Below are positions 5,759 through 61,698 of a stretch of 64,000 nt of DNA, piece after piece. Made by a program: the position numbers and the translations under genes. The stretch's first letter is position 1. Each line of letters begins with the position of its first letter. This DNA is from a virus, in IMG/VR virus record IMGVR_UViG_3300037541_000522, positions 1 to 64,000 of that record; one strand, given 5' to 3'. Under the pieces are notes generated by a model. It saw only the letters and a list, made by a program, of their open reading frames with translations. It made no database searches and had not been told where the DNA came from.

Positions 5759-8275
5759 ATGGCTAGATTAATACTTAAAAAATCAGCGGTTATTACCGAT
5801 GGTGCACCAAAACAACCTGCGCCAGGCGACCTTGAGTACGGTGAGCTTGCCCTTAACTATGCAGTTGGTACACTCTACTACAAAAAATCTGATAATACAA
5901 TTGGTGCTATTGGCGCAGGTGCTTCACCTGGCAACGGCACCCTGACACTCCAGGCTCAGGCGGGCCTAACTAACACTAGTGTTTCCATTGGTACAGGTAC
6001 AGGATTTAGTGCTAATACTGCAACTAATACAACCTATCAAGTTAATGTTGGTCCAGCACTTAGTGCACTAGCTGGCACCATGACAGGTGCAGGTAGTGGC
6101 TTTTTACGCAAGTCGGGTGCTGATACTTATGAGGTAGATACTAATACGTACGCTACTGCAAGTAGTTTAGCTAATTACTTGCCGCTTGCTGGTGGCACCA
6201 TGACTGGTGCTATTAACATGAGCGGGACTCAAACCCTTACACGTGCTGGTTTTGCTGGTATTGAGTACTACAATACTGCTGGTACTTGGGAAGTCTATAT
6301 TGGTACTGAAAATAACACCGGCAATGTACGGTATAATTCTAGACAGGGTACACATACTTGGTATGCAAATGGAACTTCCATAGGTTCTTTAGCTTCAACA
6401 GGGCTTAATGTTGCCGGAACCTTAACTTTACAAGGTAATAGACTAGGTATTAAAAATACTGCTATTACCGCTGGCATAGACAGCGTAGCAGGATGGGCTT
6501 ACGACAGCACATTTAGTGTTGCTAATCCAGTTGATATATTCTTTAAACCAGACGGTTTAATAATGTATCTAGCGTTTTCTAATTCAATTACCCAGTATAA
6601 TTTGTCAGTTGCATGGGATATCACCACAGCAGTAGCAGGCTCAACATTTTCAATGTCACTAATTGACGTTAGTACATTAGGATTGTTTATTAGTCCAGAT
6701 GGTACTAAGATGATAACCTCTGGTAACAGTGGAGTTGTTATTGCCAACGGTTCAGGTGTTGCAGGCGAAGATAGAGCTTACTATTTTACCTTAGGTACAC
6801 CTTGGGATATAACAACCGCTAGTTTAGTAAGTTCAATACGATTTGCCATAGGTGATGCAGGTGGTATTCCAGCAGCAATGACTGCACCACAGGCGGTAGA
6901 CTTTAAGAATGATGGTACAATAATGTACATCATAGATTCAACTACTGATGCTGTGCATCAGTTTGCGTTGAGTTCGGCATATAATGTTGCAACGGCAACC
7001 TGGACTAAACAATTTAGTGTTAGTGGCCAAGAAAGCGGCCCAACTGGTCTGAGATTTAACACTGCTGGTACACGCATGTACGTATACGGTAGTACCGGAG
7101 ACGACGTAAATGAATATAGATTGGGCACAGCGTGGGACATTGCCACTGCTGTATTTTATGATAAATTCTACACAGGTTGGTTTGAACCTACTCCAACCGG
7201 TATATACATTAACGAATCTGCTAACGTAGCATTCTTATGCGGATCTAGTGGTGATGTAGTATTAAAATTCCGCACAGATCGTCAGGCAGTAGAGATTGAC
7301 GCAGAAACTACTACCAGTAAAATTGAACTTGCTGGCAACACGAGAGTTACAAATAACTTTTACGTTAACGGACGTACAGTACTTGAAGGTCGAGTTGACA
7401 CCCTTGGAGATCTTGTTATCGGGGGTGATATTACAGTTCTTGGTAATGATTTAGTTGTTGGTTCTGCTACGAGTAGTGCGACATTATTCTCTGGATTAAC
7501 GTCGGGTGCTTTAAGCATCGCTACCAGCGAAACAACTGGTGCAATTACTGTAGGCGGAACAGCAGCCACTGGTGTAATCACCGTCGGTCAGTCCACAGTT
7601 AATCAGACTTTAAACTTATCATCGGGTGCTACTACCGCAGTTTCGACTAAAGTTATTAATATTGGTACCGCCGGTCTTGCAGGTTCGACTAGTACAATTA
7701 ACATCGGATCAACAGTTTCGGGAGCACTGGGTGTTACTACAATAGGTGGAACACAAACTATAATTAGTTCTACTACTTCTGCTGTTTCAACTACTACTGG
7801 TGCATTAGTAGTTGCCGGTGGAACGGGTATTGGTGGAAATTTACATGTTGCCGGAACCCTAACACACGCAGGCCTAGCTCCTAGTACCGGTACTGGTATA
7901 GATCAAGTATATACTCATCAACAAAGCATCACACTAACTACTAGCTGGCAAGATACTGGAGTAAATGCTGCCGAACTTGCAACTGGTAGTTATATTGTTC
8001 AAGTAACTAACGTAAGTGACCATACAGTAGGTGGTACTCAATATCAAGAATACTATACTGGCGTAATGAGTTGGTTTGCTGGCAATACTAATAGTGAAGT
8101 AACTGATGAAATTGTCTTGCACCGAGCAGGGCACGCACCAAATAGTGGAACAATATTCCTAAGAGTTCAAAGAACTCCTGGTGAAAACGCAGACGATTTA
8201 AAGCTACAGGTAGCTGGAACAACTACGAATAGTGCGGCATACCAGTACACATTTAAGTTTCGCAGATTGATATAA
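5759..8275 (+). CDS. Tail fibre/adhesin with beta-propeller-like repeats
   Basis: N-terminal LEYGELALNY motif; repeated FKPDG..MY / QY.LS.AWDI.TA blades. Confidence 0.75.
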   Translation: MARLILKKSAVITDGAPKQPAPGDLEYGELALNYAVGTLYYKKSDNTIGAIGAGASPGNGTLTLQAQAGLTNTSVSIGTGTGFSANTATNTTYQVNVGPALSALAGTMTGAGSGFLRKSGADTYEVDTNTYATASSLANYLPLAGGTMTGAINMSGTQTLTRAGFAGIEYYNTAGTWEVYIGTENNTGNVRYNSRQGTHTWYANGTSIGSLASTGLNVAGTLTLQGNRLGIKNTAITAGIDSVAGWAYDSTFSVANPVDIFFKPDGLIMYLAFSNSITQYNLSVAWDITTAVAGSTFSMSLIDVSTLGLFISPDGTKMITSGNSGVVIANGSGVAGEDRAYYFTLGTPWDITTASLVSSIRFAIGDAGGIPAAMTAPQAVDFKNDGTIMYIIDSTTDAVHQFALSSAYNVATATWTKQFSVSGQESGPTGLRFNTAGTRMYVYGSTGDDVNEYRLGTAWDIATAVFYDKFYTGWFEPTPTGIYINESANVAFLCGSSGDVVLKFRTDRQAVEIDAETTTSKIELAGNTRVTNNFYVNGRTVLEGRVDTLGDLVIGGDITVLGNDLVVGSATSSATLFSGLTSGALSIATSETTGAITVGGTAATGVITVGQSTVNQTLNLSSGATTAVSTKVINIGTAGLAGSTSTINIGSTVSGALGVTTIGGTQTIISSTTSAVSTTTGALVVAGGTGIGGNLHVAGTLTHAGLAPSTGTGIDQVYTHQQSITLTTSWQDTGVNAAELATGSYIVQVTNVSDHTVGGTQYQEYYTGVMSWFAGNTNSEVTDEIVLHRAGHAPNSGTIFLRVQRTPGENADDLKLQVAGTTTNSAAYQYTFKFRRLI

Positions 8276-49254: not shown

Positions 49255-49310
49255 CTCATTCTCCTCGGTTGAGCAAGAATTGTTAATAAAAATGCCAAAT
49301 GGCCATTTAA

Positions 49311-49616
49311 GTCCAGGTTTTCTGTTACGAGGATAACCTGGAACCCTAAGCCGAGTTTAGGCGGCTAATGCGAACGTTTCATCGTTTGCGTTTAGTTTGT
49401 TTGCTTCTCTAGCCGGGTAGTCCCAGCCCTACGGCTTCTGCATTGCCGAGTTGTCCATCTTCCTACTCTGCACCCTGTCGAAACCATGACTAGCCCATCA
49501 GAAACATTCTCACGGTTTATCTTTCCGTTCCCAAATACATGGACAAAAATGTTTCTGGTGGACCAGGCGGGAGTCGAACCCGCGTCCAAAGCACCTTTGG
49601 GTTAACTTCATACAAC
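49311..49616 (-). ncRNA. ssrA: Circularly permuted two-piece tmRNA; tag ANDETFALAA
   Basis: Acceptor piece ...GACGCGGGTTCGACTCCCGCCTGGTCCACCA (ends 49556) precedes coding piece GGGCTAGTCATGGTTTCGAC (starts 49496). G3:U70 pair present; tag ORF at 49389-49357. Confidence 0.92.
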
Positions 49617-49800
49617 TATATCTTCTTTTGCGTAACACTACAACTACCAACTAGGGTTTTACCTTTAGTTTCGTAGTCTAGTTTAAGTTTGGCTAGTGCT
49701 TGTTCGCACTCAGCTCTGCTAGAGTATGCACCTCTAGTTCCGTGCTCGCCGCCAGTGCCTAACACAGAAAATAGTATAATCCATACCCAAGCCATAGTAT

Positions 49801-50576: not shown

Positions 50577-51047
50577 TTAGTTTGAAAGAATAAATTTTAG
50601 TCGGTCTGCTGCGTAACTTGCTGCAAATGCTTGAGGTTTAACTTGTGCTTCTATATTACAGGTGCCACGAATATATCCAATAGCTTGAGAAATTACTTGT
50701 GAACTAGCATAGCGATCATCTGGATTAATATCTAGATGCACTTCTACGTGTCGGTCTTGGAGTACATCGCTTAGCTCATTAAATAGCTGTGCGACCTTAT
50801 ACACTTCACCCATGAGTCGTAGCGCAGGCTTATCTCGGCGTTGATCATAGTCTCGCTCACGAGTAATATGACCAAATATCTTACAGCCGTGTTTGCCTTC
50901 AATGTGAACTACAACCGCTAGGTAGTATTCAGCCATCCAGCAATCACCACCACTTACACGCTCACTATCTGCGCCCAAGTATATTCGAGTATCTGCGCTT
51001 TGAGCACTAATAAACTGTTTAATTTCGTCTAGGTCGAATTGTTTCAT
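50577..51047 (-). CDS. RNase H-like YkuK (DUF458) family protein
   Basis: IYLGADS, EVHLDIN, AASYAAD; start at MKQFD. Confidence 0.75.
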   Translation of the reverse strand: MKQFDLDEIKQFISAQSADTRIYLGADSERVSGGDCWMAEYYLAVVVHIEGKHGCKIFGHITRERDYDQRRDKPALRLMGEVYKVAQLFNELSDVLQDRHVEVHLDINPDDRYASSQVISQAIGYIRGTCNIEAQVKPQAFAASYAADRLKFILSN

Positions 51048-51053
51048 GATTTG

Positions 51054-51127
51054 TGGCAGGGGTACTTGGAGTCGAACCAAGAATATGGGAATCAAAATCC
51101 TGTGTGATACCGTTTCACTATACCCCA
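51054..51127 (-). tRNA. tRNA-Gln (TTG)
   Basis: TGGGGTA...TTTTGAT...GCCA. Confidence 0.9.
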
Positions 51128-51129
51128 CT

Positions 51130-56961: not shown

Positions 56962-57019
56962 CTCCGTGTGTTTAAATTCCCCTTACGGGGGCTGTTTGGG
57001 TTGGTTCCCAAATCTTTTA

Positions 57020-57094
57020 TGGTGGACCGCCGGAGGATCGAACTCCGACCTATGCCGTGCAAAGGCACCGTGCTCCCATTATCACTAGCAGCCC
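57020..57094 (-). tRNA. tRNA-Ala (TGC)
   Basis: G3:U70, TTTGCAC loop, ACCA. Confidence 0.92.
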
Positions 57095-57412
57095 TTAATA
57101 ATAATATACGTGTGGTTTACGTCCTACTGCGGGCGGATCTACTAGCTCTAGGTCTGTGGTCTTGAGCACTGCGTGCTCCCATACACGGCCACGACGACGC
57201 TGTGGACGATTCATAGTAATACGAGTCCACCAGCTAGGTGTTGTGCTATACCAGCGAAAATGACAGTAGTTTCTACGCTTTTTAGTTTTCTTGCCCGCAA
57301 CTTGTATGTAACGAAAACCAAAGCTACTAGTATCTACACGAATAGCATCGTATAAGTAGTGATCTTCTGGATACGCTACAGTGTGCGGTTTATCTTTTAG
57401 AGTACGACTCAT
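57095..57412 (-). CDS. Basic hypothetical protein (MSRTLKDKP...TPSWWTR)
   Basis: GGAG RBS; start at MSRT. Confidence 0.65.
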   Translation of the reverse strand: MSRTLKDKPHTVAYPEDHYLYDAIRVDTSSFGFRYIQVAGKKTKKRRNYCHFRWYSTTPSWWTRITMNRPQRRRGRVWEHAVLKTTDLELVDPPAVGRKPHVYYY

Positions 57413-57422
57413 TATTATCTCC

Positions 57423-57464
57423 AAAAAACCATAGTTCAAATCACGAGTATGAGTTGAACTATGG
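57423..57464 (-). terminator. Intrinsic terminator ending the ncRNA operon
   Basis: CCAUAGUUCAA...UUGAACUAUGG-UUUUUU. Confidence 0.85.
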
Positions 57465-57760
57465 CCCCACTCCCTAAAGTGGCTTCATAGTGTCTTGTTA
57501 CTATTGGGCGACGGCCCGCAGGTCTAGAATGTCCAGTTACGTAGTCCACCATCACTAGTAACTTTTATCGCCCTGTTGCGCGGTATAGTCTAGGGATACG
57601 ACTATGTAAGCGTGGCGGGAACTATTATATGCAGGTGCTCATTCCTGCTTGCTCTAGACTTCACTGTTCACGTTGTACAGTCGAATATCTTTACGGGGTA
57701 CGACCCCAGCCTAGTCACCAGCCTAGAGTTTATAGGTTCAGCGTGAGCAGCGCAATTACG
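57462..57760 (-). ncRNA. Unidentified ~300-nt structured RNA (candidate)
   Basis: No ORF in the track; many nested stems (see findings). Confidence 0.6.
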
Positions 57761-57763
57761 GAT

Positions 57764-57823
57764 GTTGACTAGAAATAAGTTTTCCCAGTTCAGGCTTTAG
57801 AGTGCCTTATCGGGCTAGTCAAC
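57764..57823 (-). ncRNA. 60-nt stem-loop element (candidate)
   Basis: GUUGACUAG...CUAGUCAAC 9-bp closing stem with inner stems. Confidence 0.5.
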
Positions 57824-57825
57824 AA

Positions 57826-57924
57826 CCATATTGAAACACACTGTGGTCTATACATACTTTCCTTGAGAGGTATGTGGTGTACCAGCCCTGATCTTTTTAG
57901 GGATTTTAATGTGCTTCAATATGG
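57826..57924 (-). ncRNA. 99-nt branched RNA closed by a 17-bp stem (candidate)
   Basis: CCAUAUUGAAGCACAUU/AGUGUGUUUCAAUAUGG with G-U pairs on the minus strand. Confidence 0.6.
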
Positions 57925-58008
57925 TGGATGCGGATGGATTCGAACCACCAGCGTTTCTAGTGTCACGAGTTTACAGCCCGCTGCCGTCAACCATTTGGCT
58001 ACGCATCC
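57922..58008 (-). tRNA. tRNA-Tyr (GTA)
   Basis: CTGTAAA loop, variable arm, ACCA. Confidence 0.92.
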
Positions 58009-58194
58009 ATAGTAAAGTATTTTGCTTACTGCCTGCTCGCGCATGAGTTAATCTTCCTGCCATATGATCCCGCTAAGGATCGGCTACGATTAACTTCAGC
58101 CCGCTTTAGGGATATACCGGCCGGGTACCCTTATTTCTCTGGGCTGCAATGTCCTGTTTATTTCACCTAGGACGAACAAAATACTTAACTATGG
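58007..58194 (-). ncRNA. ~185-nt multibranched RNA between tRNA-Leu and tRNA-Tyr (candidate)
   Basis: 17/18-bp closing stem plus GUCCU/AGGAC, CAGCCC/GGGCUG, GUUAAUC/GAUUAAC arms. Confidence 0.65.
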
Positions 58195-58274
58195 TGCCCT
58201 GGGACGGACTCGAACCGTCACGCTCGCGCACTGGCTTCTAAGACCAGCGTGTCTACCAATTCCACCACCTGGGC
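58192..58274 (-). tRNA. tRNA-Leu (TAG)
   Basis: CTTAGAA loop, ACCA. Confidence 0.92.
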
Positions 58275-58367
58275 ATGGTAACGATCTAAGGTTTTAATCG
58301 TTGTGGCTCATGCACCCCAAGCTGACGCTTGTTGAGCTTTTGCGGTTTGTGCCGCCCCATATATAAT

Positions 58368-58487
58368 ATTATACAGTATTAGTTAGCGTGAATCAAGACA
58401 AGAAATTAAACGGTAATAGTTGTATTGCTATTTCTTTCTTAATTCACACTATACACATATTATATCACGTTTACTGGTCTAGTGCAA
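58368..58487 (-). promoter_or_regulatory. Two tandem sigma70-type promoters driving the RNA operon
   Basis: TTGCAC-17-TATAAT (58487-58459) and TTGATT-17-TATAAT (58396-58368). Confidence 0.8.
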
Positions 58488-60842: not shown

Positions 60843-61094
60843 TTACATACCAGCTATATCCCTGCATACACTACAAATGGGATTTTGATCTAGGTCTAGG
60901 ATTAGTCGCTTAGACCAGATGTTACAGTGTGTACACTGCTCTATGCCAATGTCCATTTCTAGTATACTTTCGTAGTCTAGGTCAAGTTCATTGCATACTT
61001 TTTTAAGCGGCACACGGGTACGCTCTAGGCGTTTAACCAGCTCACTTAGTTTCAGGCTTCCAGCGGTCATCGAGTTCACGGTGTGTTTTTTCAA
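60843..61094 (-). CDS. Small zinc-ribbon protein
   Basis: CTHC...CSVC. Confidence 0.55.
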   Translation of the reverse strand: MKKHTVNSMTAGSLKLSELVKRLERTRVPLKKVCNELDLDYESILEMDIGIEQCTHCNIWSKRLILDLDQNPICSVCRDIAGM

Positions 61095-61497
61095 ATTCTA
61101 GGAGGAACATAATGCAACACATAGCATGAGCTAGGTGGCTTAGTCCCGATTCAGGGTCACGATCTTCGCCGTCTTGAAAAGCTAGGATGTGACGTAGTGC
61201 TGCACTAAGTGGACGAGACCACTCAAATCCGCCACGCCAATTATGTGCAGCGTACTTCTCTTTGCCAAAGGCTAGTACCATAGCAGTTTGATGTAGTGCT
61301 TCACTGCTGAGTAGGCTCATAGGAGCCTTATAACTATCGTACTTTAGTGCAGTACCTTGCGGTTTTGGTGTAGCCTCTTGCCAAGCAGGCTTACTCCAGC
61401 CAGGCCCAAAAAACTGATTTGTTTCTATAGCCTGCTTCATTTTGTCTACTTCTTCTTGCGAGTATAGTGGTGTTTGTGTAAAATTTATAGTTGTCAT
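61042..61497 (-). CDS. dATP/dGTP diphosphohydrolase-like (DUF5664) protein
   Basis: KYD..K, FGKEKY..HNW, ALRH, DPESGLSHLAHA. Confidence 0.85.
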   Translation of the reverse strand: MTTINFTQTPLYSQEEVDKMKQAIETNQFFGPGWSKPAWQEATPKPQGTALKYDSYKAPMSLLSSEALHQTAMVLAFGKEKYAAHNWRGGFEWSRPLSAALRHILAFQDGEDRDPESGLSHLAHAMCCIMFLLEFEKTHRELDDRWKPETK

Positions 61498-61512
61498 GGT
61501 TGTAGTATAGAC

Positions 61513-61698
61513 AAAGGCGGCCAAGTCTCGTAGGAGAACTTGGCCGCGGGAACACACTTACCTGTACACAGGACTTATAGTGTAGCATCCAACTTGTACC
61601 TCCAAGCCGTGTACGGCCCAGATTATATAGTGGATTAAGGCATTTGAGTTGTTTCTTGCAACTAGCAGTTCGTGGTCAAATCCTTGAACACCACGCAA
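61513..61698 (-). ncRNA. Candidate ~185-nt small RNA/leader between promoter and terminator
   Basis: Several hairpins; ends in GCGGCCAAGU...ACUUGGCCGC-CUUU. Confidence 0.6.

Follow-up and report, generated by a model that had tools for sequence, protein, structure and literature searches.

A structured non-coding RNA of about 345 to 400 nucleotides is encoded on the minus strand of a tRNA island in an uncultivated phage, where it extends from about position 57824 to somewhere between 57480 and 57423. Comparison of approximately 35 related contigs resolves the region into three parts, here called modules A1, A2 and B. The RNA is a fusion of separable modules, which stand alone or in reverse order in other phages, and not one two-domain fold. 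Covariation, family-wide conservation and presence in RNA libraries together support a functional structured non-coding RNA as opposed to a spacer or a decayed gene.

Genomic setting of the RNA locus

The window is a 64,000-nucleotide stretch (positions 1 to 64,000 of IMG/VR record IMGVR_UViG_3300037541_000522) of a phage record of 97.5 kb that is estimated to be 92% complete, and the public runs containing window DNA are lake-water metagenomes. The phage carries genes for a family A DNA polymerase, a DnaB-like helicase, an SbcC-like nuclease subunit and a ribonucleotide reductase. Its polymerase resembles those of large (~127 kb) Vibrio phages such as Thalassa (48.7% identity), and for this reason we consider the phage to be distantly T5-like. 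The protein encoded at 61042-61557 (minus strand) carries at its N terminus a domain of the dATP/dGTP diphosphohydrolase type (PF18909, E = 3.8e-34), and phages with modified purines employ such enzymes.

Between 46.8 and 60.8 kb, the minus strand carries nineteen tRNA genes and a permuted two-piece tmRNA (ARAGORN, Rfam). The tmRNA (49266-49676, minus strand) encodes the tag ANDETFALAA and scores 114.5 bits with the Rfam tmRNA_permuted model and 111 bits with beta_tmRNA. Also within the island is a YkuK-type RNase H-like protein (PF04308, E = 1.3e-18; 50577-51128, minus strand). The RNA locus lies between tRNA-Tyr and an ORF of 105 amino acids, after which comes tRNA-Ala. The RNA is probably the last gene of a minus-strand operon composed of a promoter-like site, tRNA-Leu, tRNA-Tyr, the RNA, and a hairpin with a U-run:

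58368 to 58396, minus strand: candidate sigma-70-like promoter TTGATT-17-TATAAT (consensus scan, 10/12 matches) upstream of tRNA-Leu, the probable operon start
58192 to 58274, minus strand: tRNA-Leu(UAG), first gene of the putative operon (ARAGORN, Rfam)
57922 to 58008, minus strand: tRNA-Tyr(GUA) (ARAGORN, Rfam)
57098 to 57412, minus strand: 105-aa ORF of no known family, downstream of the RNA and separate from it

The 105-aa ORF is not regarded as part of the RNA because one member locus (L010) lacks the ORF and a 216-kb phage (L005) has the ORF without the RNA; neither module B nor module A2 was found in the latter. In loci of the window type, the ribosome-binding site of the ORF directly follows the terminal hairpin. 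The encoded protein, with many Arg and Trp residues and VYYY at its end, shares 44% identity with the product of L005:3001-3291, which is likewise located beside tRNA-Tyr.

Extent and modular composition

The block conserved among relatives runs from UAUGGYUGUUGAC (57830) to UUGAACUAUGG (57429), and two unrelated sequences are found upstream of it. An earlier, sequence-only reading had proposed an ornate RNA of about 300 nucleotides, and the comparison lengthens this RNA by placing its start near 57824. That reading also favored a structured RNA over a decayed protein gene, and we agree: the region is judged non-coding because no ORF exceeds 47 amino acids and because relatives differ there by frame-breaking 1-nt indels and 52-53-nt insertions. 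A mini-ORF (AUG AAN CCA CUU UAG) was considered and dropped, as subfamilies S11 and S21 have no AUG at that position. The three modules are as follows:

57763 to 57824, minus strand: module A1, a lineage-specific 5' hairpin (GUUGACUAG/CUAGUCAAC, with inner CCCG/UGGG and GGC/GCC pairings)
57625 to 57760, minus strand: module A2, about 135 nt (model R2, alignment A9)
57453 to 57623, minus strand: module B, about 170 nt, the family core (model R1, alignment A6)

Module A1 is a long hairpin in the window and a short one in L117, and is missing from other subfamilies; a single A-U to G-U change within it is consistent with a minus-strand RNA. In loci of the window type, module A2 is fused to module B on its upstream side; in two other loci (L020 and L113) it is found downstream of B, and in a further two (L135 and L136) it stands alone. 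The junction between A2 and B tolerates inserts of 53 nt (L009) and about 60 nt (L117). The phage genome has a single copy of each module.

Folding energy gives no sign of this structure. Minimum-energy folding against shuffled controls, which the sequence-only reading had named as a condition that could refute it, yields z-scores of -0.32 (whole stretch), -0.85 (module B) and -0.68 (module A2), all of which are at chance level. Since the folding-energy test is a weak one, relatives were compared instead, and compensatory changes in a total of 34 pairs (A2 and B together) support the folds of both modules, as a covariation check had been proposed to reveal.

Structure and covariation of module B

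The module B structure was drawn by eye and converted to a model (R1), after which members were realigned and pairs counted. Among 25 distinct sequences (alignment A6), 89.2% of cells are paired, versus 32-42% when the partners are slid, and compensatory changes occur in 24 of 42 pairs, versus 5-7 when slid. None of 500 shuffles reached the observed values. At several positions G-U pairs occur that are compatible with a minus-strand RNA only. The elements of the fold are:

57620-57618 with 57534-57532, minus strand: H0, the closing helix of a three-way junction; UCC/GGA, exchanged as a whole for AGG/CCU
57617-57614 with 57572-57569, minus strand: Ha, in the long-hairpin arm of the junction
57612-57610 with 57581-57579, minus strand: Hb, in the same arm
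57605-57600 with 57590-57585, minus strand: Hc, with the invariant loop UCCCUA (57596-57591)
57562-57536, minus strand: Hd, a variable hairpin forming the other junction arm
57517-57506, minus strand: He, a hairpin with a conserved YGUC loop
57496-57483, minus strand: conserved single strand AAGACACUAUGAAG / AAGACACUAUGAA after He
57491-57486 with 57463-57458, minus strand: Hg, flanking Hf to form an extended hairpin
57482-57467, minus strand: Hf, invariant CCACUU-UAGG-GAGUGG
57462 to 57464, minus strand: CCA after Hf, at the base of the terminal hairpin, as NNCCA in most subfamilies

The invariance of Hf is not merely an effect of the search, because a separate, independent anchor pattern led back to the same AGG-type members, with Hf unchanged in every one. 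Hf opens with NCCA (CCA at 57482-57480) in 25/25 sequences, unlike the downstream CCA, which is missing in two subfamilies: most members of S17 have CAUCA, and S11 has GGCUA. In S11, Hg and Hf form a single continuous hairpin. The UAGGGA segment of Hf (57476-57471) is complementary to the Hc loop UCCCUA (57596-57591). Both are invariant, with no compensatory change, and a contact between them, either intramolecular or intermolecular, is possible. A truncated or divergent copy of module B at L116:461-590 (minus strand; 43.8 bits) keeps only Hg, Hf and the spacer hairpin, and its upstream sequence is unrelated.

Structure and covariation of module A2

Module A2 has homologues in L020, L113, L135 and L136, all four of which end in CCUGC-CACCA. 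In alignment A9 (model R2), 98.8% of cells are paired and compensatory changes are present in 10/23 pairs, versus 0-2 when partners are slid. A2 is a second, independent family. Its helices are:

57728-57720 with 57660-57652, minus strand: P2, the main long-range helix, CUCUAGGCU/AGUCUAGAG in the window and CUAUCGUGCU/AGCACGAUAG in L020
57707-57695, minus strand: P3 hairpin
57681-57663, minus strand: P4 hairpin
57648-57631, minus strand: S1, the 3' hairpin of A2, with covarying GCAGG/CCUGC

The loop of S1, UGAGCA (57641-57636), is complementary to UGCUCA (57749-57744) in all copies of A2. This contact, proposed by the sequence-only reading, is plausible in view of its retention; the pairing partners show one wobble-compatible change (in L135) and zero compensatory changes. 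A second contact suggested at the same time, GUCG with CGAC, is unconserved. In L020 (~8060-8190, minus strand) and in L136, a stand-alone A2 and its spacer are followed by another conserved non-coding module (GUGGCCAAGUAGCCCAACUAUCAGGGUAAUACCGAAUCC...) upstream of tRNA-Phe.

Every sequence quoted in the earlier reading occurs at its given place on the minus strand, including the CCA at 57464-57462, and seven of its eleven helices hold in relatives. Five of the seven covary: GCAGG/CCUGC (to GUGGG/CCCAC and GCGGG/CCCGC), CGCC/GGCG (to CGCA/UGCG, CGAC/GUCG and CGGC/GCUG), GGGC/GCCC (to GGAU/GUCC and GGCU/UGCC), AUAGUC/GACUAU and GUUAC/GUAAC. CCACU/AGUGG is invariant, and GGGGU/ACCCC is conserved, although its constant part is GGG/CCC only. 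The other four find no support. The helices that were thought to close two domains are the weakest of the eleven when counted on close relatives. Specifically, CUGCUCACG/CGUGAACAG pairs in 79.6% of cells and has a C-A mismatch in all sequences, and its 3' strand is the loop and 3' arm of a different, covarying hairpin; GUCUAGA/UCUAGAC pairs in 78.6% of cells, has two pairs broken in 4/6 close relatives, and loses its 5' arm to helix P2. CCUA/UAGG is broken in L003, and the strongly covarying P2 pairing forms instead. AUAGU/ACUAU is missing from most other subfamilies.

Spacer hairpins that begin at CCA

For each of tRNA-Leu, tRNA-Tyr and the RNA, a long hairpin starts precisely at the CCA, and one more occupies the gap between the tmRNA pieces:

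58007 to 58194, minus strand: spacer hairpin from the tRNA-Leu CCA, CCAUAGUAAAGUAUUUUG ... CAAAAUACUUAACUAUGG (inverted repeat I2, 18 nt, 94% complementary)
57825 to 57925, minus strand: spacer hairpin from the tRNA-Tyr ACCA, ACCAUAUUGAAGCACA / UGUGUUUCAAUAUGGU; the stem differs in L004 and L009 with pairing kept
57423 to 57464, minus strand: terminal spacer hairpin CCAUAGUUCAA.../...UUGAACUAUGG, stem 57464-57429, then U6
49490 to 49566, minus strand: hairpin starting at CCA between the two tmRNA pieces

These stems have the 3' CCA at their start and UAUGG at their end. At the base of the stems (CCAUAGUUCAA or CCAUAUUGAA) the sequence is conserved from one subfamily to another, and wherever it differs the two arms covary; the base of the terminal hairpin, for example, is CUAUAG/CUAUAG in S11 and CCAUAUUGAA/UUCAAUAUGG in S19. 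The interiors are variable (36 to 113 nt), some with further conserved inserts. The same type of spacer hairpin that follows tRNAs also follows the CACCA of A2 in L020, L113, L135 and L136. From their sequences, the spacer hairpins may be shared processing signals or cassette boundaries.

In the window, the terminal hairpin has the form of an intrinsic terminator and is predicted to act as one. In relatives it spans 40-113 nt with variable inserts, and the U-run is often missing. It is not just a terminator, because in L010 the block meets tRNA-Ala directly, without ORF or U-run. Hg and the terminal hairpin must compete, since the hairpin's 5' arm includes nucleotides that also belong to the 3' arm of Hg. 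A rule that would restrict CCA to the terminal module fails, because the internal module B of L113 has UGCCA.

Additional elements are present within the hairpin that follows module B in some relatives. A 'module C' of about 55 nt, consisting of CUGG..CCAG and AGC..GCU hairpins, occurs in L002:2916-2968, L010 and L020:8377-8459 (minus strand), and is missing from the window. At L024:1-70 (minus strand) the hairpin contains a tRNA-type T-arm sequence, GGGGUUCAAUUCCUC, and a tRNA-like piece appears to be nested in this spacer.

Distribution of the family

Five close relatives, about 90% identical, were found via the downstream ORF and a conserved 17-mer. More distant members, recovered by a scan with the 16-mer CCACTTTAGGGAGTGG, are all in phage tRNA islands and on the tRNA strand. 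Together, the 16-mer scan and the models place module B on ~17 viral and ~18 metagenome contigs, which yield 25 distinct sequences in 7 subfamilies. Module B occurs once per locus, always co-oriented with tRNAs, and in most subfamilies it begins about 12 nt past a spacer hairpin. Only the 3' 170 nt (57623-57453) are common to all subfamilies. As delineated by these searches, module B is a conserved, uncatalogued family restricted to the tRNA islands of uncultivated freshwater phages.

Downstream neighbors vary and include the 105-aa ORF, tRNA-Ala, tRNA-Ile and module A2. A riboswitch or other cis-regulatory leader finds no support, for lack of a constant class of downstream gene. No co-occurring protein within ~7 kb is common to more than 3/7 subfamilies; the best is the YkuK-type RNase H-like protein, with homologues near the RNA in 3/7, and this protein is a candidate processing nuclease.

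Searches elsewhere returned little. A blastn comparison of 57400-57900 with 50,697 cultured-phage records gave no match, and a scan of 185,579 species genomes gave one true copy, of the S19 subfamily (L132, JBDNIA010000359.1). That 7.5-kb contig carries 21 tRNAs and module B and is binned into a Crocinitomicaceae MAG. Either it is a phage contig that was mis-binned, which is probable, or it offers a host clue for the S19 subfamily; as a probable phage contig, it was not accepted as a bacterial homologue or as host evidence. Pattern AAGACACTATGNNNCCAC produced chance matches only, apart from known members, and patterns GGCACTCTAAAGCC and GGCGAAAAAT...ATCCTCNCT produced mostly chance matches.

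Presence in RNA libraries

Contigs of 324-425 nt assembled from RNA are present in four metatranscriptome runs of four studies (lake, river and estuary). They correspond to 57824-57480 (depth 88), 57807-57483, 57887-57486 and 57897-57496, and all span A2 and B with termini within the non-coding block. The RNA is apparently expressed, with the limitation that these Logan contigs are no proof of transcription, strand or ends. We do not take 57824, where one contig starts, for a mapped 5' end; the start may be an assembly break caused by a T/C polymorphism at 57825. At the other end, the contigs stop at 57480-57496, ahead of Hf and not as far as the CCA at 57462. No contig of these runs covers the ORF at 57098-57412 or most of the flanking sequence, an absence that carries no weight as evidence. 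Those that stop at 57486 and 57496 have adapter sequence at the low-coordinate end. The stops at 57480 and 57483, from two studies, hint weakly at a 3' end, or else at a reverse-transcription block caused by the Hf pseudoknot.

Comparison with known RNAs

A search of 57000-58300 with Rfam 15 at E-values up to 10 returned only the three flanking tRNAs and chance-level microRNA matches. A tRNA or pseudo-tRNA is not supported, since neither ARAGORN nor Rfam RF00005 makes a call in 57094-57922 and no acceptor stem can be drawn. The sole tmRNA of the window is the one at 49266-49676, and Rfam finds none in the RNA stretch. The sequence-only reading had considered such complexity typical of a ribozyme or an RNP scaffold. 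Known self-cleaving ribozymes and group I and II introns have no Rfam match, and the same is true of bacterial RNase P RNA (type A/B) at E-values up to 10. In bacterial RNase P, helix P4 is formed by the universally conserved segments CR-I (GAGGAAAGUCC) and CR-V (ACAGAA..GGCUUA). The only look-alike of RNase P RNA, GUGAAGUCUAGAG, forms the 3' arm of helix P2 and is replaced by GCCGAGCCUAGAG and GCGGAGCACGAUAG in relatives. More generally, resemblances noted by eye to RNase P, group I intron, 5S rRNA, SRP and tmRNA were set aside, as Rfam returned nothing and the motifs vary among relatives.

For 50 years, stable RNAs other than tRNAs have been recognized as products of the tRNA clusters of large lytic phages such as T4 and T5, and more recently GOLLD and ROOL came to light in similar surroundings. 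In the T5 record, eight genes for 'stable RNA with unknown functions' are annotated among tRNAs, and the T4 record lists rnaC and rnaD, the latter ending in CACCA. Like the T5 RNAs (RNAI, RNAIII, RNA1, RNA2, RNA2H, RNAIV and RNAX) and T4 species 1 and 2 (rnaC and rnaD), the RNA described here is a non-tRNA RNA encoded among, and on the strand of, the clustered tRNA genes. Its phage has the usual replication genes of large lytic phages and is distantly T5-like. Stand-alone A2 shares its CACCA end with T4 rnaD. The RNA differs from those of T4 and T5 in its larger size, its modularity, its 3' ends of pseudoknot type and its spacer hairpins anchored at CCA. With filters off, searches of the T4 region (R1) and of the T5 tRNA region (R1 and R2) gave best E-values of 0.08-1, none of them at the annotated RNAs.

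To our knowledge, no function is established for the T4 and T5 stable RNAs, GOLLD or ROOL. GOLLD and ROOL are phage-encoded near tRNA islands, abundant, and found in lakes, and GOLLD combines a conserved 3' part with a variable 5' part (PMC12286853). The RNA resembles GOLLD (RF01998) and ROOL in kind, not in membership: those are large ornate phage or prophage RNAs, abundant and often by tRNA islands, but at 170-365 nt the RNA is a quarter to a half the size of theirs (580-800 nt), and the helices are unrelated. GOLLD and ROOL models gave no match in the window (gathering score), in 57000-58300 (E up to 10) or in 11 member loci (E up to 5). We place the RNA, as a new family, among RNAs of the kind to which the T4 and T5 stable RNAs, GOLLD and ROOL belong.

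The tRNA-like structures (TLS) of plant viruses offer a different comparison. In the TYMV type, the loop of a 3' hairpin pairs upstream, creating a coaxial stack with a continuous 3' strand and a tail that ends in CCA. Similarly, and as in the tRNA-like domain of tmRNA, the 3' hairpin loop of each module can pair upstream to give a stack of 10-12 bp that precedes a CCA tail. The 6-nt complementarity between loop and upstream segment is present in all members of A2 and B, with no compensatory change. All stand-alone copies of A2 have NNCCA, as do most subfamilies of module B; S11 and most S17 members lack it. Unlike a TLS, the modules have the 5-nt NNCCA rather than NCCA, CCA is missing in two module-B subfamilies, and there is no T-loop or anticodon-like element.

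Proposed role and rival explanations

The most likely role, in an account that as a whole has a probability of roughly 0.6, is that of a stable, trans-acting RNA matured like a tRNA. Such an RNA would be co-transcribed with tRNA-Leu and tRNA-Tyr, released by the tRNA route via the spacer hairpins that start at CCA, and would then accumulate as a compact pseudoknotted RNA. The 3' end of each module would present a hairpin loop paired upstream, followed by NNCCA. During infection it would most likely act in trans, with its invariant 3' domain, which resembles a tRNA end, displayed to a factor of host or phage origin from the tRNA or translation apparatus. A more specific proposal, by analogy with TLS and unlikely as it stands, is that A2 and B are phage-made mimics of the tRNA acceptor end. 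Being matured, repaired or charged by tRNA enzymes would follow from such mimicry (a 10-12 bp stack plus NNCCA); alternatively, the mimics might be decoys for bacterial anti-phage nucleases that target tRNAs.

Several other explanations account for part of the evidence. Module B, with or without the 3' hairpins, might be a self-cleaving or processing ribozyme that cuts the polycistronic tRNA precursor, maybe after the CCA at 57482-57480. Hammerhead and HDV-like theta ribozymes are known beside phage tRNAs, and the complex pseudoknotted fold, with its many invariant unpaired nucleotides, would suit a catalyst. So would the NCCA at the start of Hf, which is kept in 25/25 sequences where the downstream CCA is not, and the contigs of two studies that stop at 57480 and 57483 with no loose end. 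We nevertheless judge a ribozyme improbable: no known family matches at E-values up to 10, the other two runs end at 57486 and 57496 and thus indicate no single cut site, the continuous Hg-Hf hairpin of S11 suggests that both helices belong to the mature RNA, and 170 nt is large for a mere processing signal. Self-assembly in the manner of ROOL or GOLLD, in which the UCCCUA-UAGGGA pair forms between molecules to yield dimers or larger RNA-only assemblies, seems quite improbable. It fits the invariance of both 6-nt complementary loops, the high depth in small metatranscriptomes, and a context of phage tRNA islands, lakes, and a conserved 3' with a variable 5' part that recalls those RNAs (PMC12286853). 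However, there is no sequence or model similarity to them, the RNA is much smaller (170-365 versus 580-800 nt), and loop complementarity reads the same for intramolecular and intermolecular pairing.

The overlap of Hg with the terminal hairpin invites a cis-acting explanation, namely a leader or attenuator controlling read-through of the hairpin into the 105-aa ORF or tRNAs, with CAUAGU pairing either with ACUAUG (Hg) or with the 3' arm of the hairpin. Each of these helices excludes the other, both keep pace with one and the same sequence change in S19, and in the window type the ORF has its ribosome-binding site just past the hairpin. We hold this to be very unlikely, given that a tRNA or RNA module, not the 105-aa ORF, comes next in most members, that ORF and RNA occur without each other in L005 and L010, and that only some members have a U-run after the hairpin. 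Finally, the chance-level folding energy, together with three successive 3' hairpins that are loosely cloverleaf-like, might suggest a non-functional spacer of decayed tRNA genes or of a protein gene. This is extremely improbable because covariation contradicts it: compensatory changes affect 34 pairs. Motifs are moreover invariant across seven subfamilies, no tRNA or pseudo-tRNA is called, and there is no ORF, with indels in relatives breaking the frame.

Implications

These findings add two covariation-supported families, A2 and B, to the stable RNAs of phage tRNA clusters, both of them apparently abundant in RNA from lakes and rivers. If the acceptor-end mimicry were true, it would reveal a TLS-type RNA made by a bacterial virus and shuffled as cassettes between CCA-anchored hairpins. 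The shuffling of modules between such hairpins, one of which also splits the tmRNA gene, hints at a common system for the maturation or cassette exchange of phage RNA genes. At 135 nt and 170 nt, respectively, A2 and B are small enough for structure probing, crystallography and cryo-EM, and any function found for this RNA would probably illuminate the whole of a neglected class.
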